Below are positions 1-10,006 of a DNA stretch of 64,000 bases, in pieces. The first letter of the stretch is position 1. Every line of letters starts with the position of its first letter. Below the pieces are notes generated by a model. It searched no databases. It was not told the DNA's origin and saw only the letters and a program-made list of their open reading frames with translations. Both the position numbers and the translations under genes were made by a program. The stretch is from an uncultured Chloroflexia bacterium. GTDB lineage: Bacteria; Chloroflexota; Limnocylindria; Limnocylindrales; CSP1-4. The stretch lies in contig CAVRGP010000011.1 in the NCBI GenBank assembly GCA_963720755.1, forward strand, positions 320,001 to 384,000, read 5' to 3'.

Positions 1-309
1 AGTCTCGCGGCGGCCGAGGCCGACGCCCGGTACGTCGGCCTGGTCCTGTTCAGCTACCCGCTCCATCCGCCCGGCGCCCCGGATCGAGCGGCAGCCAGGA
101 CGGCACACTGGCCGTCTATCCGTTGCCCGGTCCTGCTCCTGTCGGGTACGTCCGATCCGTTCGCGAAGATCGACCTGCTGCGTGCCGCGGTGCGGGACCT
201 GCCGGCCGCGGAGCTCGTGACGTACCCGCGCCTTGGCCACACCCTGAGGCCCGCCCTCGATGACGTCCTCGATCGGGTCGCGGCCTTCCTGCGGGCGTTG
301 CCCGGGTGA
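1..309 (+). CDS. alpha/beta-fold hydrolase (dienelactone hydrolase/KANL3-like), 5'-truncated by window edge
   Basis: Frame 1 reads ...GLVLFSYPLHPPG...PVLLLSGTSDPF...YPRLGH...; TGA at 307-309. Not in the ORF track because it is partial. Confidence 0.8.
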   Translation, partial: SLAAAEADARYVGLVLFSYPLHPPGAPDRAAARTAHWPSIRCPVLLLSGTSDPFAKIDLLRAAVRDLPAAELVTYPRLGHTLRPALDDVLDRVAAFLRALPG

Positions 310-480
310 TCGGACGATCCGGCGCGGCCGAGGCGCCTTGCCCCGCGCACCGGTCTTCGCTATCCTGACCGACCCAAGCGTCCGGCCGACCAGAAAGCTC
401 ACCCAGGCACCGGGCGCCACAACTCATCCAGCCGCGGTCCGTCGCGCTCACCGCGCGGCCCCTGGCAGGAAGGAGTCACA

Positions 481-1323
481 TTGCGAGTGCAGTCCGGTCG
501 CCCGAGGGCGGCCCTCGTCGCATCTCTCGCGGCGATCATCCTCGTCGGCGCCCTGGGCGTCGGATCGACCCTCGCGGCCGACCCGCCCGGTCAGGCACGG
601 TTCCTGTGGGCTCTCGGCAAGGTCGAGTCCGGCGGCGACTACTTCGCCCTGAATCCGACCACCGGCGCGTACGGCAAGTACCAGATCATCCCGTCGAGCT
701 GGAGGGCGTGGGCGAACCGGTACCTGGGTGATCCGGCGGCGAAGCCGACGCCCGGCAATCAGGAAGTGGTCGCGTCGTCCAAGGTGCGGGCGCTCTATCG
801 CGGGCTGGATCGGTGGCGCCGGGTCGCCTACTGGTGGCTGACCGGCTCGAGCCAGACGGCGGGTTGGTCCGGAGCTGCCACGAGCTACGTGTCGCGGATC
901 ATGGATCTGTATCGCTCCAGGGCCGGTGGAGGTCCGGGCACGCCGCTTTCGAAGCGCCATTCCTATTCCGAGAAGAGCCCGCGGATCGCCTATGCCGGAC
1001 GGTGGAAGTCAGCCACCTACGGCGGGTACGCCGGCGGCGCGGTCGCCTATTCGACGGCAGCGGGAGCGACCGCCACCTTCACCTTCACCGGCACGCGGAT
1101 CACCTGGTACGGGCCGGTCGGTCCGACCCGCGGTCGAGCGCGGGTCTTCGTGGATGGGACGCCGGTCAAGGTCGTCGATCTCCACGCGAGTTCGTTCACC
1201 GCCAGCAAGGCACTGTTCACGAGGCGCTGGTCGACCGCTGGTCAGCACACCCTCACGATCGAAGTCGTCGGGACGCCTGGTCGGCCATACGTCGCGATCG
1301 ATCGGTTGGTCGTGCTCGAGTAA
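481..1323 (+). CDS. secreted protein: lysozyme/transglycosylase-like N-domain plus C-terminal beta-sandwich (carbohydrate-binding-like)
   Basis: TTG start after AAGGAG; signal peptide; VESGGDY..NPTTGAYGKYQ motif; C-terminal YAGRW...FTFTGT..GPTRG.A.VFVDG..HTLTIEV..AIDRL. Confidence 0.75.
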   Translation: MRVQSGRPRAALVASLAAIILVGALGVGSTLAADPPGQARFLWALGKVESGGDYFALNPTTGAYGKYQIIPSSWRAWANRYLGDPAAKPTPGNQEVVASSKVRALYRGLDRWRRVAYWWLTGSSQTAGWSGAATSYVSRIMDLYRSRAGGGPGTPLSKRHSYSEKSPRIAYAGRWKSATYGGYAGGAVAYSTAAGATATFTFTGTRITWYGPVGPTRGRARVFVDGTPVKVVDLHASSFTASKALFTRRWSTAGQHTLTIEVVGTPGRPYVAIDRLVVLE

Positions 1324-1361
1324 CGTGATGCGCAACCGTCCACGCGGATGCCTGACGACGC

Positions 1362-2558
1362 TCAGCGGTCGCGCGACCGCCAGGCATCGCGCACCTTGAT
1401 CCGACCGCCGACCTGGAGCACGGCTCCCGAGTAGATCCGGGCGCCGACCGAGAACAGCCCCCAGATGCCGAGCACGGTGATGACCATCGACAGGCCGATC
1501 TGCCACGGCGGGATCGCTCCGAAGGCGGCGCGCAGCGGCACGACGAATGGCGCCGACGGCGGGATGAACGTGGCGATCGTCGCCACGACGCCGGTCGGGT
1601 CGTCGAGGACGGAGAAGATGGCCACGAAGTAGCTCGCCATCGCGATCATCGATACCGGCGTCGAGGCATTCGACGCTTCTTCCGGTCTCGAAGCCAGGGC
1701 GCCGAGCGAGCCGAGCGCCGTGGCGTAGAGCGAGTAGCCGAGGATGAACCAGACCACCAACAGGGCGATCGCTCCAGGGGTCGTTCGCGGAAGCTCGACC
1801 TCGCTGGTCACCGACGTCGCGACGAGGGCGGCGACCATGAACACCGCGAGTTGGGCGATCCCGAGCACGCCGATCCCGAGGACCTTGCCCATGAGCAGAT
1901 CGCGCGCCCGGACGGTCGACAGGACGACTTCGACGACACGACTCTGCTTTTCCTCGACGACCCCTGTCAGGACGGTGAACCCGAAGCTGAAGATGCCGAC
2001 GAGGATGGCGATGGCGCCGATGTTGGCGACGATGAACTGGGCCTGATCCACTTCGGAACGGGCGTCGATCGTCGATATGACCGGAGGTTGCTGGGCAGCG
2101 GCCAGGCCGGCCTGATCGACGTCGCTGGGCGCCAGCACGCCCTGGATCCGCAATCCGATCGTCGCGGCCGACAGCATCTGCACGATGGCCGGATCGGCGT
2201 CCTTCTTGAAATGCACCTCGCCCGGTCCGCTCAGGTCGGCCGGCATGTCGACGACCACGTCGACGCTCCCGTCGACGAGGGCCGCGTCGGCCTGGGTAGC
2301 GGACTCGAACGTCGAGATCTCGACCGTCTGGTCGGATCGTTTCGCCACGGACTCGATGGCGACGTCGAGCCCGGGTGGAGCCGGCTGGACCACGCCGATC
2401 GTGGTGGTCGCATCGTCACCGCGCAGGATCGCCGGGATCACGAGCGATGCGACCACGATCGCGGTCGTGAACAGGACGCTGAGGATGTAGCCACGACTCC
2501 GTCCCCGTTCGAGGATCTCGCGGCGGGCGACCAGCCAGACGCTGCGCCAGCGCGGCAT
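1362..2558 (-). CDS. ABC-2 type transporter permease (NatB-like)
   Basis: Start MPRWRSVWLVARRE overlaps the ATPase stop (ATGA); VEEKQSRVVEVVLS..LLMGK motif; multiple TM helices. Confidence 0.88.
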   Translation of the reverse strand: MPRWRSVWLVARREILERGRSRGYILSVLFTTAIVVASLVIPAILRGDDATTTIGVVQPAPPGLDVAIESVAKRSDQTVEISTFESATQADAALVDGSVDVVVDMPADLSGPGEVHFKKDADPAIVQMLSAATIGLRIQGVLAPSDVDQAGLAAAQQPPVISTIDARSEVDQAQFIVANIGAIAILVGIFSFGFTVLTGVVEEKQSRVVEVVLSTVRARDLLMGKVLGIGVLGIAQLAVFMVAALVATSVTSEVELPRTTPGAIALLVVWFILGYSLYATALGSLGALASRPEEASNASTPVSMIAMASYFVAIFSVLDDPTGVVATIATFIPPSAPFVVPLRAAFGAIPPWQIGLSMVITVLGIWGLFSVGARIYSGAVLQVGGRIKVRDAWRSRDR

Positions 2559-3469
2559 CAGGCGACCTCGCCGGGCTCGCCCGGAGCGACGGCCTCCATG
2601 AACAACTCCGAGAGCCGCGGCGGTTGGTAGGCGAAGGTCCTGACTTCGCCGGCGGCCCTCGCCAGGGCAAGCAGATCGTCGAGGTCTTCCGACCGGTCGA
2701 CCAGGAGCTTGATCCTGTCGCCATCGCGCTCGACGACCATCACGTCCGGTCGATCGCGGAGCCAGGAGCCGCCCGATCCAGCAACGTCGATCTCGAGATG
2801 GCGGCGACCGGCCGCCGCCCGAAGCGCCTCGATCGCGCCGGACGCGACGATCCGTCCGCGCGCGATGATGACGACGTCCTCGCACACATCCTCGACGAGG
2901 TCGAGTTGGTGACTGGAGAAGATGACGCCGACGCCGGCTGCCGCACGCTCCCGGACGACCCGGGTCATCGTCGCGATGCCGATCGGGTCCAGGCCGGAGA
3001 ACGGTTCGTCGAGGACGAGCAGGGTCGGGTCGTGGACCAACGCCGTGGCGAGCTGGATCCGTTGCTGGTTGCCGTGCGACAGCTCCTCCAGCTTCGACTT
3101 CGCGCGGTCAGCCAGACCCATCTCGTCGAGCCAGCGGATGGTCGCGGCATCGGCCGCCTTGCCCGACATGCCGTGCTGCTGGGCGAAGTAGCTCAGCTGG
3201 TCCGCGACACGCATCCGAGGGTAGAGCCCGCGCTGTTCCGGCATGTATCCGAACCGCAGCCGGATATCGCGATCGACCGCCTTGCCGTTCCACCGGATGT
3301 CGCCGCGATCCGGTCGAGCGAGTCCGAAGATGCAGCGCATCGCGGTCGTCTTGCCCGCGCCGTTCGGACCCAGGAAGCCGACGACCCGACCCGGGACGGC
3401 CTGGAACGTGGCGCCGTCGAGGGCGACGACGCTCCCGTAGCGCTTGGCCAGGTCGACGATCTCGAGCAT
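2558..3469 (-). CDS. ABC transporter ATP-binding protein
   Basis: Walker A GPNGAGKT, LSHGNQQ signature, Walker B VLDEP. Confidence 0.95.
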   Translation of the reverse strand: MLEIVDLAKRYGSVVALDGATFQAVPGRVVGFLGPNGAGKTTAMRCIFGLARPDRGDIRWNGKAVDRDIRLRFGYMPEQRGLYPRMRVADQLSYFAQQHGMSGKAADAATIRWLDEMGLADRAKSKLEELSHGNQQRIQLATALVHDPTLLVLDEPFSGLDPIGIATMTRVVRERAAAGVGVIFSSHQLDLVEDVCEDVVIIARGRIVASGAIEALRAAAGRRHLEIDVAGSGGSWLRDRPDVMVVERDGDRIKLLVDRSEDLDDLLALARAAGEVRTFAYQPPRLSELFMEAVAPGEPGEVA

Positions 3470-3484
3470 CGGAACCCCCCCCGC

Positions 3485-4699
3485 CTAGGCCACGTCGAGG
3501 ATCCGGTAGGCTCGCTCGCCGGCCGGGGTCTTGACGACCACGAAGTCGCCGATCTCCCGACCCACGAGGGCTCGACCAACCGGCGACGCCGACGAGATAC
3601 GGCCGCGCGCCGGCTCCGATTCGTCCGCCCCGACGATGGTATAGGTGACCGTCTCACCGTCGTCGTCCACGGTCACGACCGACCCGAGCCCGATCCTCGA
3701 GCCAGCAACCGGTGCGGCCACGATCACCGCTGAGCGCAGGCGTGCCTCGATCGCCTGGACTCGTCCCTCGAGGAACGATTGCTCCTCGCGCGCGGCGTGA
3801 TAGTCGGAGTTCTCCTTGAGGTCGCCGTGCTCCTTGGCTGTCCGGATCCGGGCGATCACCTGGGGGCGCTTGACCCGGGTCAGCTCGTCGAGTTCGGCGC
3901 GCAGCCGTTCCGCTCCCTCGGCGGTCAGCGCTTCCGCGACCAGCACCGGTGGCTGATCGTCGGCGGCCGGTGCCGCTTCGGTCGATACGGGCCGAGTCGG
4001 TCGCCTGGTCGGCCGGCGCTTTGGCTCGGGTGGATCGCCTCGAGCTCCCTCGGCGTCGCCGTCGGCGACGTTGACGATCCTGGTCGGTGGCGGAGGTGCC
4101 TCGACCGGCTCGACCAGCAGTGAACCGCTGATCCCGGTGATCTTGCGCTCGCCGGTCGGACGCCGGAGGTTCGCCCAGGGGAGGACGAGGTCGCGGTCCG
4201 GGAGTGCGGCCAGGTCCGCTTCCGGGACGCGTTCGGCGAAGGCCGAGAGCAGGGCATCCTCGTATTCCTCGGTGGCATCCGTCGCGGCCCACCAGATGCG
4301 CAGGTCGTCGAGCGAGCGCAGCGTCTTCAGCCAATGGCCGCCGGCATACGGCTTTCGATCCCCAAGCTCCGTCCGTGCCATGGCGCCGACTCGTCGGCCG
4401 ACCGAGACCTCGGACACGCCGATGTACAGGATCGGCCGAGACGGCAGCCAGAACGACGCGAGCCGAGCCGCGAGCGCCTTCGACGTCGGTCGCTGGTCAT
4501 CGAGCCGAAGGGTCTCGACGCGTTCGATCCACTTGCCGACCCGGGTCATCTCGATAGGGGCGCTCGCGACTGGCCCCGGCATCTCGATGATGAAGACGCC
4601 CGGACCCGGGGCGGGAACCTGGTGCCCCCACCGGCTGGGTCCATCGGCCATGAGGCCGATCGCGCGGAAGAGCGAGGCTGCGCCGATGTCGTTGGTCAT
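3485..4699 (-). CDS. greA: transcription elongation factor GreA fused to an N-terminal GIY-YIG-like domain
   Basis: C-terminal ~150 aa: LTAEG..L..EL..L...RP.....A.EHGDLKENSDY.AA..EQ...ISSASPVGRAL. N-terminal GVF..LYIG..RR..E..LPWAN. Start chosen at MTND, 6 nt after TACCAT. Confidence 0.85.
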   Translation of the reverse strand: MTNDIGAASLFRAIGLMADGPSRWGHQVPAPGPGVFIIEMPGPVASAPIEMTRVGKWIERVETLRLDDQRPTSKALAARLASFWLPSRPILYIGVSEVSVGRRVGAMARTELGDRKPYAGGHWLKTLRSLDDLRIWWAATDATEEYEDALLSAFAERVPEADLAALPDRDLVLPWANLRRPTGERKITGISGSLLVEPVEAPPPPTRIVNVADGDAEGARGDPPEPKRRPTRRPTRPVSTEAAPAADDQPPVLVAEALTAEGAERLRAELDELTRVKRPQVIARIRTAKEHGDLKENSDYHAAREEQSFLEGRVQAIEARLRSAVIVAAPVAGSRIGLGSVVTVDDDGETVTYTIVGADESEPARGRISSASPVGRALVGREIGDFVVVKTPAGERAYRILDVA

Positions 4700-4764
4700 C
4701 GGTCGATGGTACAGGTGACCGGCTCGCGCTATGGTGCGATCCACATGGACCGTCATCGCCCGTC

Positions 4765-6132
4765 ATGATCCGAGTCACCCGACGCGCCCTCCTGGTCATC
4801 GCGGTGGTCATGGTGGCCATCGGGATCTGGCTGGTGTCTCCTCGGTTCGGATCGTCCGGGGGTCCCCTCGCCACTCCGGAGACCGGCCAGGCCGCCTCGG
4901 CCGCAGTGACCGCGTCACCGGCCGACACGGGGACCTCCGGCCCGGGCTCAGGACAGCCCGTGGTCCCAAGCTCGACCGTCCCGCCTGCATCGCCGACGGC
5001 CAGTCCCGTCGCTCCAGCCGCGGCCCCACCGCCGAGCGCCACCCCGGCGTTGACCGCCGCGCTGGACGCGCGTCTCGAACGGCTGCGGGCGAAATACGGG
5101 ATGCCCGGCATCAGTGCCTCGATCCTGTTCGCCGACGGGACCAGCTGGCAAGGGACCGCGGGACTGGCGGACGTTGCCGCCGGCCGACCGGTGACACATG
5201 ACACGGCCTTCTCGGTGGCGAGCGTGTCCAAGACGTTCACGTCGGCGCTGATCCTGGCCCTCATCGAGGATGGCCGGCTCAGCCTGGATTCGACCGCGCG
5301 GACGTACCTCCCGGATCTCAAGATCAACCGGGCGATCACGGTCCGGGAACTGCTCGACCACACAAGCGGGCTGCGCGACTACTTCTACAACCCGACGATC
5401 GACCACGCGTTGCTCACCAAGCCGGCCGCAGTGTGGAGCGCCGCCCGGTCACTTCGCTACCTGGGGAAGCCGTATTCCAAGCCGGGCGTGTCGTGGCACT
5501 ACTCGAACACGAACTACTTGATCCTCGGCATGCTCGCGAAGGTCGTCGGTGGGGCGCCGGTCGCGGATCAACTCCGCGCCCGGTTCTTCGACCCGCTCGG
5601 GCTCGACCACACGTTCTACCAGTCGGTCGAGGCACCTCGGGGGCCGGTCGCACGGGGATATCGGTTCCTCGGCACGGACCCGTCCCTGCCGGCCATCGAT
5701 CTGTCGGATGGGACAGACGTCGTGCCGTTCACCTCGGTCGTCACGGCCGCCGGGGCAGCGGGTTCGATCGCGACCGATGCCGTCGACCTCGCTCGCTGGG
5801 CGAAGGCCCTGTACGCCGGCCAAGCCTTGTCACCAGTGTCGCGTGCGGCGATGGTCGCGGATCTCCAGCGCACCGCGCAGTACGCCCCCGGGGTCCGCTA
5901 CGGTCTTGGCGTCCAGTCCGTCGAAGTGGCCGGCCATCCCACCCTCGGCCATTCCGGCCGGTTCCTCGGCGCGCGTGCCGCGATGCGGTGGCTGCCGGAC
6001 GAACAGATCGCCATCTCGGTCCTGACCAACCAGAGCCGCAGTGACCCGAACGCGGTGGTCAGGGCGCTTCTCAAGGTCATCCTTCCGACGCCGACACCGA
6101 CCGCGTGTCCGACGTGCCCGGCTGCCCCCTGA
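4765..6132 (+). CDS. serine hydrolase, beta-lactamase/D-Ala-D-Ala carboxypeptidase family, membrane-anchored
   Basis: SxxK (ASVSK), LLDHTSG, YSN, GHSG; N-terminal TM helix and Pro/Ser linker. Confidence 0.9.
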   Translation: MIRVTRRALLVIAVVMVAIGIWLVSPRFGSSGGPLATPETGQAASAAVTASPADTGTSGPGSGQPVVPSSTVPPASPTASPVAPAAAPPPSATPALTAALDARLERLRAKYGMPGISASILFADGTSWQGTAGLADVAAGRPVTHDTAFSVASVSKTFTSALILALIEDGRLSLDSTARTYLPDLKINRAITVRELLDHTSGLRDYFYNPTIDHALLTKPAAVWSAARSLRYLGKPYSKPGVSWHYSNTNYLILGMLAKVVGGAPVADQLRARFFDPLGLDHTFYQSVEAPRGPVARGYRFLGTDPSLPAIDLSDGTDVVPFTSVVTAAGAAGSIATDAVDLARWAKALYAGQALSPVSRAAMVADLQRTAQYAPGVRYGLGVQSVEVAGHPTLGHSGRFLGARAAMRWLPDEQIAISVLTNQSRSDPNAVVRALLKVILPTPTPTACPTCPAAP

Positions 6133-6282
6133 CGAAGGCTGGTCGACCGAGTGCCGGTGGTGCTCGTTGGCAACGAACCCTCGCGGGGTACGTACCACCG
6201 CCGACGCACTTCGGTACCGACGGGCTCTTTCCGGCGATCGATGCCGCGACCAGACTGGCGAGAACCCACGACGGGGGTGAAG

Positions 6283-6819
6283 ATGACGGTCCAGGTCGAC
6301 GCGTACACGAGTGCAGGGTTGGCGAGGGGAATGCTCGGCTGGCCCGGGTCGCTCCGCGACGTGCTCGAGACCGGGACGCTCCTGCTCGAGGGTGCAGCCT
6401 GGCAGGGACTCGGGGCGTCGATGCCGGAGTCCATCCGATCGCTGTCCATCCCGAGCGACGATGTGCTGGTCGCGGTCGGGGACGAGGACCCGGGCGTCTC
6501 GGTCCACGCCGCCTGGCATCACATCCGTCTCGAGGCCGGACCGTATACGGTGGAAGGCGAGCTTCCGACCCAGCCCGGGTTCGACCCGGGTCGCGCGCTG
6601 ACCCGGCCGTCGGGTGAATTCCTCGAGTTACGCGACGTTCGGTTGACGTTGAGCGGTCGCCCCGACGGCGGCCTCGCGACCGGTCGTCACGCCCTGGTCA
6701 ATCGCTATGCGGTGGAACGGATCCAGGCCGATCTGATGCTCGGCTTCTTCTTTCCCGGGGCGACCGTCGATCCCGACCCGATCGGCGACGCCGTCTCCGC
6801 GCGGCCCGCGCAGCCCTGA
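6283..6819 (+). CDS. hypothetical protein
   Basis: Coding-like codon usage from MTVQVDAY; start uncertain. Confidence 0.65.
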   Translation: MTVQVDAYTSAGLARGMLGWPGSLRDVLETGTLLLEGAAWQGLGASMPESIRSLSIPSDDVLVAVGDEDPGVSVHAAWHHIRLEAGPYTVEGELPTQPGFDPGRALTRPSGEFLELRDVRLTLSGRPDGGLATGRHALVNRYAVERIQADLMLGFFFPGATVDPDPIGDAVSARPAQP

Positions 6820-6822
6820 GCG

Positions 6823-8085
6823 TCAGCCGCCCGAACTCGGCGCTCCCGCTCGTCGGCGAACGGGCTTCCGGTGGGCGTGGTGTTCCGGGGCGGTCCGCGC
6901 GTGACCTGCCCGTGCGCCGAGCGGGCGGGGCTCGGCGCTCCGATCCGGGATGAACCCCTCCTCGACCGTCCAGGGGATGGCATGCTTGAGCATCCGCTGG
7001 ACACCGCGAAGGAGATCGGTCTCGTCGATGCAGACGAGCGAGATGGCCTCGCCGGTCGCCCCGGCCCGGCCCGTCCGTCCGATGCGATGGATGTAGTCCT
7101 GCGGGTTCCACGGCAATTCGAAGTTGACGACCACCGGCAGATCCTCGATGTCCAGTCCGCGTGCCGCCACATCGGTCGCGACGAGCACCCGGATCTCGCC
7201 TGACTTGAAGGCGGCCAGGGCTTTCGTCCGCTCGGGCTGGGATCGGTCGGAGTGGATCGCCACCGCGTCGAGACCCTCGCGATCGAGGCGCGTCGCCAGG
7301 CGGCTGGCCGCCAGCTTCGTCCGGGTGAAGACGAGGACCTGACGCAGGTCATCCTTCCGGATCAGGTGCGCCAGGAGGGCCTCCTTGCGGTCGCGATCGA
7401 CCGGGTAGACCAGTTGACGAACGGCTTCGGCCGCCGTATTGCGAGGGGCGACCTCGACGGTTGCCGGGTCGCGCAGGATGCCGCCCGACAGGCGCCGGAT
7501 GTCGTCCGAAAATGTGGCCGAGAACATGAGGTTCTGGCGTCTCTCCGGGAGCAGCGCGATGATCCGCTGGATATCCGGCAGGAAGCCCATGTCGAGCATG
7601 CGATCCGCCTCGTCGAGGACGAGGATCTCGACCTGACCGAGGTTGGCGACCCGCTGGCCGACGAGGTCGAGCAGCCGGCCTGGTGTCGCGACGAGGATCT
7701 CGACTCCGCCCCGCAGTGCCTTGATCTGCGGGTCCATCGGGATCCCGCCGTACACGACGGTCGAGCGAAGCGGTACCGTCCGGCCATAGGTCTGCACACT
7801 GGCATCGACCTGCATGGCAAGTTCCCGGGTGGGAACCAGAATGAGGACCCGGACCGGATGTCGAGCCGGGGAGAAACTGGTGTTGGCGTGCGCCCGGAGG
7901 CGGTCGAGGATCGGCAGCACGAAGGCGGCGGTCTTGCCGGTGCCCGTCTGCGCTGCGGCCAGGACGTCGCGGCCCTCGAGGACGAGCGGGATCGCTGCGG
8001 CCTGGACGGGGGTCGGGGTTTCGTACCTCTCCTCGGCGACCATGCGCACGAGGTCGGCCGAAAGGCCGAGCGAGTCGAAGGTCAA
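6823..8085 (-). CDS. rhlE: DEAD-box RNA helicase (RhlE-like)
   Basis: Q motif, AQTGTGKT, PTRELA, DEAD, SAT, ARGLD, HRIGRTGR; TTG start after AGGAG. Confidence 0.93.
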   Translation of the reverse strand: MTFDSLGLSADLVRMVAEERYETPTPVQAAAIPLVLEGRDVLAAAQTGTGKTAAFVLPILDRLRAHANTSFSPARHPVRVLILVPTRELAMQVDASVQTYGRTVPLRSTVVYGGIPMDPQIKALRGGVEILVATPGRLLDLVGQRVANLGQVEILVLDEADRMLDMGFLPDIQRIIALLPERRQNLMFSATFSDDIRRLSGGILRDPATVEVAPRNTAAEAVRQLVYPVDRDRKEALLAHLIRKDDLRQVLVFTRTKLAASRLATRLDREGLDAVAIHSDRSQPERTKALAAFKSGEIRVLVATDVAARGLDIEDLPVVVNFELPWNPQDYIHRIGRTGRAGATGEAISLVCIDETDLLRGVQRMLKHAIPWTVEEGFIPDRSAEPRPLGARAGHARTAPEHHAHRKPVRRRAGAPSSGG

Positions 8086-8213
8086 AGAATGCTCCTGTGT
8101 GGTCCGGCCGTCGGCGCCGGTCAGGAGCGCGACGGTCGTCCGATCAACGTGCACCGATGGGTGCGGGCGGCGCCGGACCGCCGGAGCATAGCGGAAATGA
8201 GTAGGATCGGGCC

Positions 8214-8726
8214 GTGGCTGGCACCCGCACCCGAGCGATCGAGATCCTCCAGCGGGCAGGCGTGGCCCACGAGGTCCACGCGTATGACCTCCCGGAGCAC
8301 CACGGTCGGGAGCGCGACCGGAGACCGCACTTCGGGGCCGATGCCGCGGCAGCGCTCGGCGTTCTCCCGGGACGAGTCCTCAAGACGCTGGCGGTCGAAG
8401 TGGATGGGCGCCTGGTCCTCGCGGTGATCCCGGTCGATCGCGATCTCGACCTGAAGGCAGTCGGCGTGCTCGCCGGCGGCCGACGCGCGACGATGGCCGC
8501 TCCCGCTGATGCGGAACGCGCCACCGGCTATGTCGTCGGCGGGATCAGTCCATTGGGCTGCCGACGGACGCTTCCGGTCGTGATCGACGAAGCCACCCTG
8601 GGGCACGAGTCGGTCTTCGTTTCGGCGGGCCGTCGTGGACTGCAGGTGCGGCTCGCACCGGACGATCTGGTGCGTCTGTGCAGCGCCAATACGGGTCCGC
8701 TGTCGAGGGACCATGGTCCGGGATGA
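8214..8726 (+). CDS. ybaK: Cys-tRNA(Pro) deacylase YbaK
   Basis: VLKTL, AERATGYVVGGISPLG, VSAGRRG motifs. Confidence 0.9.
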   Translation: MAGTRTRAIEILQRAGVAHEVHAYDLPEHHGRERDRRPHFGADAAAALGVLPGRVLKTLAVEVDGRLVLAVIPVDRDLDLKAVGVLAGGRRATMAAPADAERATGYVVGGISPLGCRRTLPVVIDEATLGHESVFVSAGRRGLQVRLAPDDLVRLCSANTGPLSRDHGPG

Positions 8727-8979
8727 CGCCTCAAGTGGGTCCTGCCATACTGAGCAGGCTCACACGCAACGCACCCCTTCAGAGGCCAACAGAAGACCGC
8801 CGCCCCCACGGCAGCATCCCTGTCACCTCGTCGCGCTCCCGAGCGCGACTGTCTCCCGGAACGTCCAGGTCGGGCCACGCCATGGCCCGGGCCTCGGCAC
8901 GAACCCGAGCCTGTCGTCGGAGGCCCATCACCGTCGTCGCGTGGCAGCGCGATGTTCCGGCGAACAGGAGGCATGAGTC

Positions 8980-9822
8980 TTGCCAGTCCCCAAGACCGGC
9001 GCCCAGCGGGCGTCTTCCAGCTGGATGATCCGAGTCATCGTCCTGGCCATGACGATGACCCTCGTCGGTGGCTATGCGGCATCGGATCCGACACCGGCAT
9101 CGGCCGCGAGCATGAAGGTCGTGGTGATCGTCGGGCCGGTCGGTTCGAGTACGAAGAAATACAAGAAGAGCGCCAAGCGATACGCCGCCCAGGCCCGCTC
9201 CTATGGCGCGAACGTGATCGAGGTCTACAGCCCGAACGCGAGCTGGAAGCGGGTCAGGGCCGCTGCTCAGGGCGCGAACATCCTCATCTACCTGGGCCAT
9301 GGCAACGGTTCGCCGAGCCCGTACGGCGCCTTCTCCAAGTACAACAAGGACGGGTTCGGTCTCAACCGGTCCGTCGGCCATGGCAATCGCAACACGCGGT
9401 ATTGGGGCGAGTACTACATCAAGAACGGTCTGCACCTCGCTCCGAATGCGGTCGTGATCCTCAATCGCCTGTGCTATGCCTCCGGCAATTCGGAGTGGGG
9501 TCGTCCGAACCCGACCAAGTCGGTGGCCAAGCAGCGGGTCGACAACTACGGGGCCGGATTCCTCCGCGCGGGGGCCGCTGTCGTCTTCGCCGAGGGGATC
9601 ACCTCGGCCTCGTACATCCTTGACGACCTGTTCACGTCGACCAAGACGATGGGCGAGATCTTCCGGGGTTCGCCCGATTGGGTCGGCGCGTACGACTTCA
9701 CCTTCAGCTCGAGTCGAACGCCCGGTCGGAGCGTCTGGATGGCGCCGTACGCGCCGCATCGCTACTACCGATCGGTGGTCGGCCATCTCGGGGTCGCCGC
9801 CACGGCGGTACGCGGCTCGTGA
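8980..9822 (+). CDS. secreted basic protein with caspase/gingipain(clan CD)-like His-Gly...Cys pattern
   Basis: AGGAGG then TTG; signal peptide; ILIYLGHG and VILNRLCY motifs. Confidence 0.65.
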   Translation: MPVPKTGAQRASSSWMIRVIVLAMTMTLVGGYAASDPTPASAASMKVVVIVGPVGSSTKKYKKSAKRYAAQARSYGANVIEVYSPNASWKRVRAAAQGANILIYLGHGNGSPSPYGAFSKYNKDGFGLNRSVGHGNRNTRYWGEYYIKNGLHLAPNAVVILNRLCYASGNSEWGRPNPTKSVAKQRVDNYGAGFLRAGAAVVFAEGITSASYILDDLFTSTKTMGEIFRGSPDWVGAYDFTFSSSRTPGRSVWMAPYAPHRYYRSVVGHLGVAATAVRGS

Positions 9823-9871
9823 CCTAAGAGCTCGATCCGACTCGCCCGCCCTGCGCGGGCCATCGCTGCAC

Positions 9872-9914
9872 CCACGGACCCTGGCCGGGACGATCTCCCG
9901 ACCAGGGTCCGTGG
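9872..9914 (+). terminator. GC-rich hairpin, probable terminator
   Basis: ccacggaccctgg / ccagggtccgtgg 13-bp inverted repeat after the CDS; no U-tract. Confidence 0.45.
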
Positions 9915-9976
9915 TCGTCTGGGAGATCGGGAGCCGACAGAAATAGCTCGACTATGTAACAAAGTGAACTTAGGAC

Positions 9977-10006
9977 TTGACAATCCGTAAGTCATATTGC
10001 TATAAC
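9977..10006 (+). promoter_or_regulatory. near-consensus sigma70 promoter
   Basis: TTGACA (9977-9982), 18-nt spacer, extended TGcTATAAC (-10 at 10001-10006), inside an AT-rich island. Confidence 0.75.

Follow-up and report, generated by a model that had tools for sequence, protein, structure and literature searches.

A conserved protein joins a predicted GIY-YIG-fold domain to a complete GreA in Limnocylindria-type Chloroflexota

The secondary-channel factors GreA, GreB, DksA and Gfh1 are normally small, stand-alone proteins. The C-terminal domain of GreA docks at the edge of the secondary channel of RNA polymerase, and the acidic tip of its coiled coil (D41 and E44 in E. coli GreA) reaches the active site, stimulating cleavage of backtracked RNA. 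Precedents for a GreA that forms the C-terminal part of a larger protein are the NCBIfam models NF004969 (“transcript cleavage factor/unknown domain fusion protein”, 718 positions) and NF011309 (906 positions). In the systems described by Kaur, Iyer, Burroughs and Aravind (2021), a variable N-terminal effector (DNases included) precedes TPR repeats, a GreA/B C-domain and a PIN domain (PMC8195603). The GIY-YIG nucleases (UvrC, PDB 1ycz and 1yd6; I-TevI, 1ln0; T4 EndoII, 2wsh; R.Eco29kI, 3mx4; Hpy188I, 3oqg) cleave phosphodiester bonds in a metal-dependent manner. They have an alpha/beta fold in which helices flank a three-stranded sheet, and the motifs that hold their catalytic residues come in a set order: the GIY strand with its Tyr, the YIG strand with its Tyr, a helix with Arg, a helix with the metal-binding Glu, and lastly Asn. 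The available text on Hpy188I proposes the GIY Tyr as the general base and holds both GIY-YIG tyrosines to be needed for folding and/or activity (PMC3045582). Here we describe a gene, within a window of 64,000 nucleotides from an uncultured Chloroflexia bacterium of soil, whose product brings a complete GreA together with a domain that shares the GIY-YIG fold and motif order.

The 404-aa protein consists, from N to C terminus, of a ~195-aa domain, a disordered linker of ~55–60 aa and a complete GreA (Table 1). The initial annotation had read it as one 404-aa ORF in which GreA is joined to a GIY-YIG-like domain, and this observation was confirmed as a whole: the ORF is borne out from ATG 4699, and every residue it had named was found in the translation at its place (G34-V35-F36, L91-Y92-I93-G94, R103, A119-G120-G121-H122-W123, E147, L173-P-W-A-N177 and GDLKEN at 292–297). 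On the linker it was right about the richness in Pro and Arg, to which Ala must be added, but not about a length of ~70 aa. The frame from the stop to the first start is longer (3485..4756 on the minus strand, 423 aa), and it is uncertain whether the true start is ATG 4699 or the in-frame ATG 4756; in an alignment of relatives, most start at the position of ATG 4699. The linker contains 13 P, 9 A and 7 R over 56 aa and, with a net charge of -1, is not a basic segment overall; a DGDAEGARG motif within it is conserved among close relatives only. In the full-length model (pTM 0.52, linker pLDDT 36–56) the N-domain docks on neither GreA nor the linker, and the protein is predicted to resemble beads on a string. 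Among relatives, mean pairwise identity is lowest in the linker (0.34) and reaches 0.57 in the N-domain and 0.61 in GreA.

Table 1. Location of the gene and its parts within the window
Feature	Residues	Window coordinates	Strand	Remarks
Whole gene		3485..4699	minus	404 codons plus stop, single ORF
GIY-YIG-fold N-domain (predicted)	1-196	4112..4699	minus	AF2 pLDDT 95.9, pTM 0.90
GIY motif, present as G34-V35-F36	34-36	4592..4600	minus	proposed general-base Tyr replaced by Phe
YIG motif, Y92-I93-G94	92-94	4418..4426	minus	aligned with UvrC YVG (hmmsearch, hhalign)
R103, conserved Arg in helix after YIG	103	4391..4393	minus	aligned with UvrC Arg (hmmsearch, hhalign)
E147, putative metal-binding Glu	147	4259..4261	minus	in helix EEYEDA (144-149)
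N177 of LPWAN, fifth conserved GIY-YIG position	177	4169..4171	minus	
Linker, disordered, Pro/Ala/Arg-rich	197-255	3935..4111	minus	pLDDT <50 at 209-222 and 234-254
GreA N-terminal coiled coil	256-326	3722..3934	minus	PF03449; helices 260-290 and 298-323 in model
Acidic tip of coiled coil, G292-D-L-K-E-N297	292-297	3809..3826	minus	
GreA C-terminal globular domain	327-404	3488..3721	minus	PF01272

The C-terminal 150 aa match canonical GreA (E. coli, PDB 1grj) over its full length, and the GDLKEN stretch aligns with GDLKEN of 1grj. Both Pfam domains are present (GreA_GreB_N, PF03449, at 258–326, E 7.5e-26; GreA_GreB, PF01272, at 334–403, E 5.4e-23), the cut-off of the NCBIfam model TIGR01462 (greA), 139 bits, is passed with 159 bits, and in the structural model of this part a beta domain comes after two long helices. 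G292, D293, L294, E296 and N297 are invariant in all 37 fused proteins compared. The module therefore has the two-domain architecture and the conserved acidic tip residues of the GreA/GreB family, in agreement with the initial annotation, which had called it a complete GreA with a GDLKEN tip, and judged by these features it is probably a complete transcript-cleavage factor that works as one. Unlike canonical GreA, the protein carries 255 additional N-terminal residues (the folded 195-aa domain plus linker) and coexists with an ordinary GreA in the same genomes. Against the fusion models NF004969 and NF011309 it reaches only 57.8 bits (cut-off 697) and 87.2 bits (cut-off 714), the matches being confined to the GreA ends; the N-terminal parts of those proteins are unrelated to the N-domain described here.

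The fused arrangement is widespread among relatives. The initial annotation had noted that relatives with two separate genes would make the fusion artefactual; instead, both parts lie within a single open frame at 28 of 29 related genome loci, and the fusion was found in all eight sampled genomes of the window's own family. In 25 of 31 family genomes a separate ordinary greA stands alongside the fusion: GreA_N is matched at least twice there, by a long frame and by a short one. Such a stand-alone greA, for which the initial annotation had proposed to look, is also present in the window's own genome, and its product is 50% identical to the fused GreA module. The fusion protein is thus a second, specialised GreA paralogue and not the sole GreA. 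Database labels for the fused proteins read plain “GreA”, or only the GreA half is called as a gene, and the fused architecture is therefore invisible in annotation. The nearest short relatives of the fused GreA module are GreA-only gene calls from the same lineage, and an internal start may additionally give free GreA. The organisms that carry the fusion are uncultured.

The genes around the fusion at the 29 loci gave no functional clue. Recurring upstream are a DEAD-box helicase (21/29 loci), a serine-hydrolase-like gene (23/29) and the ORF at 6151–6819 (21/29), which lie on the opposite strand or are parted from the fusion by other genes. The next gene downstream encodes an ABC transporter, and close counterparts of it (at least 66% identity) occur at just five of the 29. 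We considered an operon and set it aside, taking the recurrent neighbours as ordinary synteny of relatives. No promoter-like or terminator-like sites were found in 3200–5000 and no Rfam families in 1–10000, and among public sequencing runs no RNA run was listed with the fusion sequence.

Three approaches agree with the earlier proposal that the N-domain has a GIY-YIG fold: the AF2 model, its alignment to known structures and profile comparison with UvrC. Only 14 of 48,161 PDB chains aligned to the model at Z of at least 2 with VIA-align, and the top seven are all of GIY-YIG type: T4 EndoII (Z 7.4 over 107 aa at 2.7 Å), the plant Grx N-domain (6.3), the UvrC GIY-YIG domain (6.0), I-TevI (6.0), R.Eco29kI (4.8), PD-T4-3 (4.2) and Hpy188I (4.0). 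Z values of 6–7.4 lie in a range that the tool calls common, and the argument is that all the top rows belong to one superfamily. The PDB titles of UvrC and Eco29kI name GIY-YIG, and Hpy188I and I-TevI are called GIY-YIG nucleases in the available text of PMC3045582 and PMC1952068; we take the other three chains (EndoII, Grx and PD-T4-3) to be of this type as well. Alignment with hhalign against 18 UvrC N-domains gave 92.9% and 95.7%, hmmsearch aligns the YIG...R stretch to UvrC chain 1yd6, and the fold alignment with UvrC 1ycz ends at model residue 178 and chain residue 89. Foldseek against the PDB returned nothing at E ≤0.001 for the N-domain; Eco29kI occupies the top rows (E 0.17–1.2; best E 0.17, TM 0.28).

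Sequence methods alone never reached significance against curated GIY-YIG models. A Pfam search with the window's N-domain alone gave no match even at E ≤10, and a PDB sequence search with the single domain gave nothing usable. Its free-standing relatives match PF01541, PF20815 and PF19239 below threshold in 7, 6 and 2 of 36 cases (best E 0.003), and also NCBIfam uvrC below threshold. The domain thus has the fold of the GIY-YIG group and no match to its curated models (PF01541, PF20815, PF19239). It further differs from the known nucleases by an insert of ~50 aa (aa 40–88) that separates the GIY and YIG strands. The motif columns are the most conserved ones in the family of 862 cluster representatives, which indicates that the motif pattern is not due to chance. 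We conclude that the N-domain, as modelled, adopts a GIY-YIG fold. Identity with UvrC or Cho was rejected: in that group a UvrB-binding domain, an RNase H-like 5' nuclease and (HhH)2 come after the GIY-YIG domain, whereas here the resemblance is limited to the YIG-Arg stretch, and the remainder of the protein is GreA. A genome-wide search with PF01541 found only the separate UvrC-like frame of 619 aa.

The closest relatives of the N-domain outside the fusion are free-standing proteins of 200 and 300 aa, annotated as hypothetical proteins of phages, a Mycobacterium plasmid (one copy) and metagenomes. They are homologous to the N-domain over its full length at 36–51% identity and lack GreA. Many carry a tail of ~100 aa; a HARE-HTH is weakly hinted at in two of 36. 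Free-standing copies occur on 17 IMG/VR viral contigs, in 15 of which the gene adjoins the terminase large subunit and/or portal gene, and in one phage lineage it sits between the two; a search of phage GenBank records with one free-standing relative (P0204) gave one partial match covering 35% of the query. All 16 complete phage copies have the residues YYREN at positions 36, 92, 103, 147 and 177. As far as the alignments and tree can tell, the N-domain descends from catalytically intact, free-standing nucleases of phages and plasmids.

The same five positions differ sharply inside and outside the fusion. All fused forms fall in one clade (SH-aLRT 97). Outside that clade 44 of 46 rows have the full YYREN signature; inside it seven of 69 do, a figure that counts sequences and not independent events, since the tree rows are related and some clade rows classed as “tail” or “alone” are probably truncated gene calls. 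YYREN is kept by basal fused members, and the losses take different forms, various branches having replaced Y36 by F, E147 by L, A or Q, N177 by V or T, Y92 by F or L, or R103 by K. Position 36 is Y in all 46 outside rows, whereas inside the clade it is F in 39, Y in 27, V in one and L in one; at position 103, 80 of 83 have R and three have K. The window protein itself has F36, Y92, R103, E147 and N177, that is, four of the five catalytic residues with the GIY Tyr missing, which upholds the initial caveat that the first Tyr is Phe; the equivalence of F36 to the GIY Tyr is taken from alignment ranges (I-TevI chain residue 2 to model residue 32) and motif order. FYREN is shared by 104 of 115 close relatives. 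Two more residues, Y108 and H118, are absent from the window protein; free-standing relatives retain them to 83% and 100%, respectively. Read from the alignment, the catalytic set has decayed in several different ways across the fused branches, and the N-domain is still under selection, its fold being as constrained as GreA.

Other residues have been gained. Those specific to the fused forms (at least 84% of fused and at most 28% of outside sequences) are R12, D19, P21, E39, R134, W136, E144, E145, Y146 and D148, mostly acidic or aromatic; by the secondary structure of the model, they share the strands and helix that held the old active site. The EEYEDA helix is acidic in fused forms only. The net charge of the N-domain is about zero.

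Together these data favour, with a probability that we put at roughly 60%, a nuclease domain that has been domesticated, has ceased to cut and now targets or regulates a working GreA paralogue. An ancestor of this Limnocylindria-type Chloroflexota family would have captured a phage or plasmid nuclease by fusion to a copy of greA. Selection on catalysis would then have relaxed, with the loss of Y36, Y108 and H118 in the lineage of the window protein, while the fold stayed constrained and a new conserved surface arose; from the lost active-site residues, the constrained fold and the new surface, we infer that the N-domain has most likely stopped cutting. Tethered by ~55 aa of disordered chain, it would serve as a binding module, probably still holding nucleic-acid phosphate through R103, Y92, E147 and N177, and would direct, retain or regulate the fused GreA on particular elongation complexes. 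There the GreA part would dock at the secondary-channel rim and bring its D293/E296 tip up to the active site, stimulating the cleavage of backtracked RNA.

The initial annotation had gone further and proposed a nuclease or nucleic-acid-binding module brought to stalled RNA polymerase, for instance for transcription-coupled repair, R-loop or extruded-RNA processing, or defence. An active nuclease of this kind, cutting DNA or RNA with Y92 or another residue as the base and carried by GreA to backtracked or stalled complexes for transcription-coupled incision, R-loop processing or the removal of extruded RNA, would account for the intact and strongly conserved fold, for the four residues kept in the window protein and in most close relatives, and for the fused-clade rows with the full set. 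The YIG Tyr of Hpy188I is naturally Lys, so one Tyr can be replaced in nature, but the residue lost here is the GIY Tyr, the proposed general base (available text of PMC3045582). Eco29kI Y49A shows 0% cleavage with DNA binding kept (Kd 49 nM versus 16 nM; available text of PMC1952068), and PDB entry 3nic is titled “inactive variant Y49F”. The ancestral Y108 and H118 are gone as well, and the loss of E147, N177 or Y92 in other fused branches is unexpected under a conserved catalytic role. In each of 13 family genomes Mfd passes its cut-off, and UvrC is present in the window genome, so there is no repair gap that needs filling; we accordingly rejected missing repair genes as the reason for the fusion. 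Tyr to Phe is the mildest possible loss, and the retained Y92, R103, E147 and N177 could, going by their conservation, signify residual or altered catalysis instead of mere binding. On balance we consider an active nuclease unlikely. Of the original interpretation, then, the single gene and the GIY-YIG fold stand, and the picture of an active nuclease at stalled polymerase is not supported in the form proposed.

A bolder variant, which we regard as more doubtful, would make the fusion an undescribed physical link from polymerase rescue to the processing of DNA or RNA. In it, a GIY-YIG-derived module positioned where the secondary channel opens would recognise a nucleic-acid structure at elongation complexes that have stalled or collided, perhaps cut it in the YYREN members, and so provide an Mfd-free route to transcription-coupled repair or conflict resolution, assembled from a domesticated phage nuclease. 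Candidate structures for such recognition are a lesion, a downstream fork, an R-loop and extruded RNA.

Less credible again is a pure protein-binding module, in which nucleic-acid binding has been lost, acidic E39, E144, E145 and D148 dock on RNA polymerase or another basic partner, and this second contact helps the fused GreA compete for the secondary channel. The nature and position of the gained residues and the near-zero charge of the N-domain point in this direction, and an acidic conserved patch fits DNA binding poorly and could indicate a protein partner. However, R103, which contacts phosphate in the family, remains R or K in all fused rows, and the lack of docking on GreA or linker in the full-length model also argues against it.

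That the fusion is an anti-phage conflict system of the type described by Kaur et al., attacking virus-hijacked polymerases, is improbable. Such systems exist and, in the available text, share with our protein a GreA-derived polymerase-binding part and a nuclease-type domain in one polypeptide, nuclease effectors included (PMC8195603), and the free-standing relatives of the N-domain do reside on phages and a plasmid. The described systems, however, have only the GreA/B C-domain, together with TPR and PIN domains and variable effectors, and evolve quickly (available text of PMC8195603). The fusion has a whole GreA with coiled coil and intact tip and is inherited vertically; Pfam gives its two GreA domains alone, with no TPR or PIN. 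It is single-copy in all eight sampled family genomes, lies in a conserved chromosomal neighbourhood, evolves slowly where rapid diversification would be expected, and its effector residues have decayed.

Least probable of all is an artefact (an assembly or frame error joining two adjacent genes, or separate proteins made from one locus), for although many public gene calls span the GreA part only (147–221 aa, 60–91% identity), five of the best 120 database matches cover the N part alone and one locus (L022) is split into several frames, the single frame recurs at 28 of 29 independent loci, 115 of the best 120 matches carry both GreA Pfam domains and are full length, the N-only short forms end in Arg/Ala-rich, out-of-frame-like tails of the pattern expected from frameshifts, and public short-read contigs of one soil study, which are DNA and may derive from the source sample, tile 3300–4900 with no indel within the ORF.

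The initial annotation knew of no described fusion of GreA with GIY-YIG, and our literature search, with whole words matched, likewise turned up no paper that mentions GreA together with GIY-YIG, and none linking Limnocylindria with GreA; by that search, the fusion is a conserved and previously undescribed design. A whole bacterial family has long kept, under strong selection, a GreA that is flexibly leashed to a nuclease-derived second domain. Should the N-domain bind DNA or RNA, the protein would be a natural Gre factor aimed at particular stalled complexes, and a case of a mobile-element nuclease that was domesticated with its chemistry lost. If the N-domain still cuts, it would directly link backtracking with strand incision.

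The initial annotation had described a GreA fused to a GIY-YIG-like nuclease domain, and the residues on which it relied are all in place: G34-V35-F36, L91-Y92-I93-G94, R103, A119-G120-G121-H122-W123, E147, L173-P-W-A-N177 and GDLKEN at 292-297 (codons of all of these checked by hand). The C-terminal half is a GreA family member, matching Pfam GreA_GreB_N at 258-326 (E 7.5e-26) and GreA_GreB at 334-403 (E 5.4e-23) and scoring 159 bits against the NCBIfam greA model TIGR01462 (cut-off 139), and at the GreA tip all 37/37 fused proteins have D293 and E296. For residues 1-205, no Pfam family was found at E ≤10 and no meaningful match among PDB sequences. In the full-length model (pTM 0.52), two confidently predicted domains flank a linker of pLDDT 36-56, and no fixed domain arrangement is predicted. 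Within the linker, a motif V-x-D-G-D-A-[ED]-G-A-R-G (aa 208-222, about 4034-4078, minus strand) is nearly invariant in close relatives, absent from distant fused forms and predicted to be disordered (pLDDT <50); such a short motif may serve in docking.

The fusion gene and its neighbours in the window
Feature	Coordinates	Strand	Remark
ABC ATPase gene	2558-3469	minus	downstream of fusion gene
Fusion gene	3485..4699	minus	404 aa from ATG at 4699; ORF translation
Serine-hydrolase/beta-lactamase-like gene	4765-6132	plus	upstream of fusion gene
ORF	6151-6819	plus	upstream of fusion gene
DEAD-box helicase	6823-8154	minus	upstream of fusion gene

Taken up to its first start codon, the open frame covers 3485..4756 on the minus strand (423 aa); we use the 404-aa numbering because the ATG at 4699 is where most relatives start, and the upstream ATG at 4756 could serve as an alternative start. 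The frame is open across 4700-4756 (minus strand), a start at 4756 would leave only 8 nt to the divergent gene at 4765, and the in-frame residues YHRPM before the start at 4699 have counterparts in two relatives (YHRTM in P0114, YHPGM in P0128), a recurrence that could stem from the start codon in use or from a conserved DNA signal upstream.

An AlphaFold2 model of the N-domain (49-sequence alignment) reached pLDDT 95.9 and pTM 0.90. Foldseek against the PDB returned nothing at E ≤0.001 for this model, its top rows being the GIY-YIG enzyme R.Eco29kI (E 0.17, TM 0.28). VIA-align against 48,161 representative chains gave Z ≥2 in only 14, led by T4 EndoII (2wsh; Z 7.4, 107 aa, 2.7 Å), the N-domain of plant glutaredoxin (2lwf; Z 6.3, 97 aa, 4.4 Å), the UvrC GIY-YIG domain (1ycz; Z 6.0, 80/89 aa, 2.4 Å), the I-TevI catalytic domain (1ln0; Z 6.0, 84/92 aa, 2.5 Å), R.Eco29kI (3mx4; Z 4.8, 115 aa, 4.7 Å), PD-T4-3 (9u75; Z 4.2, 82 aa, 2.9 Å) and Hpy188I (3oqg; Z 4.0, 88 aa, 4.0 Å). 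Values of Z <8 are common according to the tool's own warning, and the result carries weight because all top rows belong to one superfamily and cover most of the small target domains. EndoII, the plant glutaredoxin N-domain and PD-T4-3 we take to be members of the GIY-YIG superfamily; the UvrC and Eco29kI chains were assigned to it from their structure titles, and published papers name I-TevI and Hpy188I as GIY-YIG.

Sequence comparisons agree weakly with this fold. The segment LYIG..SLR.RV..YY of a profile of free-standing relatives (those without GreA) aligns to VIYVGKA.SLKERVRSYF of the UvrC chain 1yd6 (E 0.18), three Pfam GIY-YIG models gave sub-threshold matches in 7, 6 and 2 of 36 relatives, and positions 21-45 of NCBIfam uvrC were matched by 10/36. 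In hhalign comparisons with 18 UvrC N-domains from genomes of the same phylum, the whole family reached 92.9% and the free-standing clade 95.7%, and a forced global alignment with these domains also pairs the Glu helix. In the ESM Atlas, unnamed clusters of 170-220 aa came first (commonest phylum Actinomycetota where known), with GIY-YIG clusters scoring 0.92. The GIY-YIG fold originally proposed is borne out by the seven top VIA-align chains and the UvrC profiles, and by its predicted fold the N-terminal half belongs to the superfamily. We stop short of classing it with the active GIY-YIG nucleases, since curated sequence models do not recognise it and one defining catalytic residue is missing. 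It also differs from a textbook GIY-YIG domain in about 50 extra residues between the GIY and YIG strands, an insert (aa 40-88) modelled as helix, small hairpin and helix.

HMMER, run exhaustively over cluster representatives, recovered 862 relatives at E ≤0.001, the best 150 of which, sorted together with the query, comprised 23 rows with a full N-domain and GreA, 28 free-standing forms of about 200 aa, 32 with a full N-domain and another C-terminal tail of at least 40 aa, and 68 with a partial N-domain. Residues at positions 36, 92, 103, 147 and 177 were read, as five-letter signatures, from one HMM alignment of all full-N-domain sequences. In a tree of 115 rows, built with the five catalytic columns removed and leaving out 120 close matches (P0002-P0121) and the partial-N-domain rows, all GreA-fused forms fell in one clade (69 rows, SH-aLRT 97). 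Outside this fused clade, the signature is YYREN in 44/46 rows, with one YYRES and one YNREN; inside, it is YYREN in 7/69, FYREN, the window's type, in 26 and YYRLN in 7, the rest including YFREV, FYKEN, FFREV and YYRAN. Close relatives carrying GreA have FYREN in 104/115 cases and YYREN in one, and YYREN occurs at 2/28 genome loci and in 16/16 complete phage copies. Basal rows of the fused clade (proteins P0134, P0135 and P0131; loci L018 and L020) keep YYREN, and which catalytic residues were lost varies between sub-clades, as relaxed selection on catalysis would produce. Loss inside the clade also affects two further positions that are almost invariant outside it: Y108 falls from 83% outside the clade to 16% inside (Ala in the window protein), and H118 from 100% to 36% (Tyr in the window protein).

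The residue F36 is the likely counterpart of the GIY tyrosine, as judged from motif order and alignment ranges (I-TevI chain 2 ~ model 32). In published work on R.Eco29kI, cleavage by Y49A, H108F and E142A was undetectable, that by R104A was about 2% and that by N154L strongly reduced, and Y49A, R104A and E142A still bound DNA (Kd 43-49 nM, wild type 16 nM; PMC1952068). The title of PDB entry 3nic reads "inactive variant Y49F". Because the window protein has lost the proposed general base (the GIY Tyr; PMC3045582) and two further ancestral active-site residues and has kept the phosphate- and metal-binding residues, we favor, at roughly 60%, an N-domain that binds but does not cut. The initial annotation had envisaged a nuclease or nucleic-acid-binding module delivered to a stalled polymerase; of this, the fold stands, and an N-domain that is still an active nuclease is unlikely given the decay of its catalytic residues.

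Despite the catalytic decay, selection on the N-domain is strong: across 37 fused proteins, pairwise identity averages 0.57 in the N-domain and 0.61 in GreA, against 0.34 in the linker. R103 is Arg or Lys in all fused rows. Residues specific to the fused clade (≥84% inside, ≤28% outside) include R12, D19, P21, E39, R134, W136, A142, E144, E145, Y146 and D148; since their places in the secondary structure are the GIY strand, third strand and Glu helix, they probably surround the old active site. A protein-binding module acting through a new acidic patch is a less probable reading again than an active nuclease.

The N-domain most likely descends from an active nuclease of mobile elements, because its free-standing relatives occur on phages and a plasmid. 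They lie on 17 IMG/VR viral contigs, with a terminase large subunit and/or portal gene adjoining the copy in 15; these 15 represent essentially one phage lineage, since the phages are related (terminase 70-81% identical). In this lineage (L059 3995-4615, L062 3920-4606 and 13 other IMG/VR loci), a catalytically intact relative sits between terminase large subunit and portal, where free-standing endonuclease genes typically lie; several loci also have an amidoligase upstream of the terminase gene, joined in L062 by a gamma-glutamyl cyclotransferase gene. The phage copies had no PHROG match at E ≤1e-5. Another free-standing copy, annotated hypothetical protein, is carried by plasmid pMYCSM02 of Mycobacterium sp. 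JS623 (NC_019958.1) among small hypothetical same-strand genes, a plasmid-borne whiA (WhiA), a DNA methyltransferase and RNase HI, a region that looks phage-like. Forms of ~300 aa (P0235, P0257, P0261, P0262, P0264, P0266, P0267 and others) carry a ~100-aa C-terminal tail on an intact nuclease domain, and weak HARE-HTH matches in 2/36 (best E 0.0083) suggest that this tail may be DNA-binding.

The nearest published idea is an effector-TPR-GreA/B-C-PIN conflict system (PMC8195603), which shares only the GreA-derived piece with the fusion, and a role as a defense system is very improbable. The window protein matches other long GreA fusions in NCBIfam (NF004969, NF011309) at their GreA ends only, far below cut-offs. 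Searches of the open-access literature with GreA and GIY-YIG as whole words, and with Limnocylindria and GreA, found no paper, in keeping with the initial annotation, which knew of no described fusion of this kind.

The fusion is real and conserved. N-domain and GreA share a single open frame, rather than two separate genes, at 28 of 29 related loci identified in one-genome-per-species contigs (MAGs titled Limnocylindrales, Limnocylindria, Chloroflexota or Chloroflexia, plus one Anaerolineaceae and one Dormiibacterota); the remaining locus, L022, is split over several frames. With residues 1-200 as query, a word-indexed search yielded 1456 matches at E ≤0.001 among 8000 scored candidates, and 115 of the best 120 are 403-541 aa long with both GreA Pfam domains; the other five are 246-287 aa, and the three aligned run into Arg/Ala-rich, frameshift-like tails past ~residue 200. 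In contigs from four public soil runs of one study, which together span 3300-4900, the ORF carries no indel; this is weak support because the study may be the window's own source. The one indel with good support lies outside the ORF, 2 nt at 3475 missing in one short-read contig, within the 15-nt gap between the fusion-gene stop and the ABC ATPase start. An artefactual fusion is the least credible reading of all.

The N-domain was found in 9/201 sampled genomes of the phylum. Eight of these, the window's genome and 7 others, are all the members of its family in that sample; the ninth, outside the family, has a weak partial match (E 7.5e-10). It was not found in sampled sister families (0/1 and 0/12 genomes). 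GreA_GreB_N occurs in 31/31 sampled family genomes, with at least two matches in 25, typically one frame of ≥400 aa and another of about 200 aa; the six one-match genomes are 66-92% complete. The window's genome has an ordinary stand-alone greA of about 157 aa (contig C11:468069), 50% identical to the fused module. From the shared frame, family-wide presence and second greA copies, the fusion gene is therefore a conserved, vertically inherited paralogue beside the canonical factor. Many public gene calls of 147-221 aa (P0274-P0393; some contigs >500 kb) contain the GreA half only, at 60-91% identity; annotation may often hide the fusion, or an internal start may be used too. The fusion gene of the locus titled Candidatus Dormiibacterota (DASQIK010000001.1) nests inside a Chloroflexota clade beside L027 (UBA5189) on very short branches, which may mean a wrong label or bin, or a recent transfer of the gene.

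The three upstream genes recur in 21-23 of 29 related loci, which looks like ordinary, conserved synteny with no evident functional link. Scans turned up no promoter-like or terminator-like site at 3200-5000 and no Rfam family at 1-10000. Mfd is present in 13/13 family genomes and UvrC in the window's genome.

Beyond architecture, fold, conservation pattern and origin, we infer a mechanism from what is established for GreA, which binds the secondary channel of RNA polymerase and stimulates cleavage of backtracked RNA. The fused GreA module would do the same by analogy. In GreA-polymerase structures the GreA N-terminus lies outside the secondary channel, and on a ~55-aa leash the N-domain would have DNA, RNA or polymerase surfaces nearby within its range. 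We regard the fusion as a Gre factor with an accessory domain.
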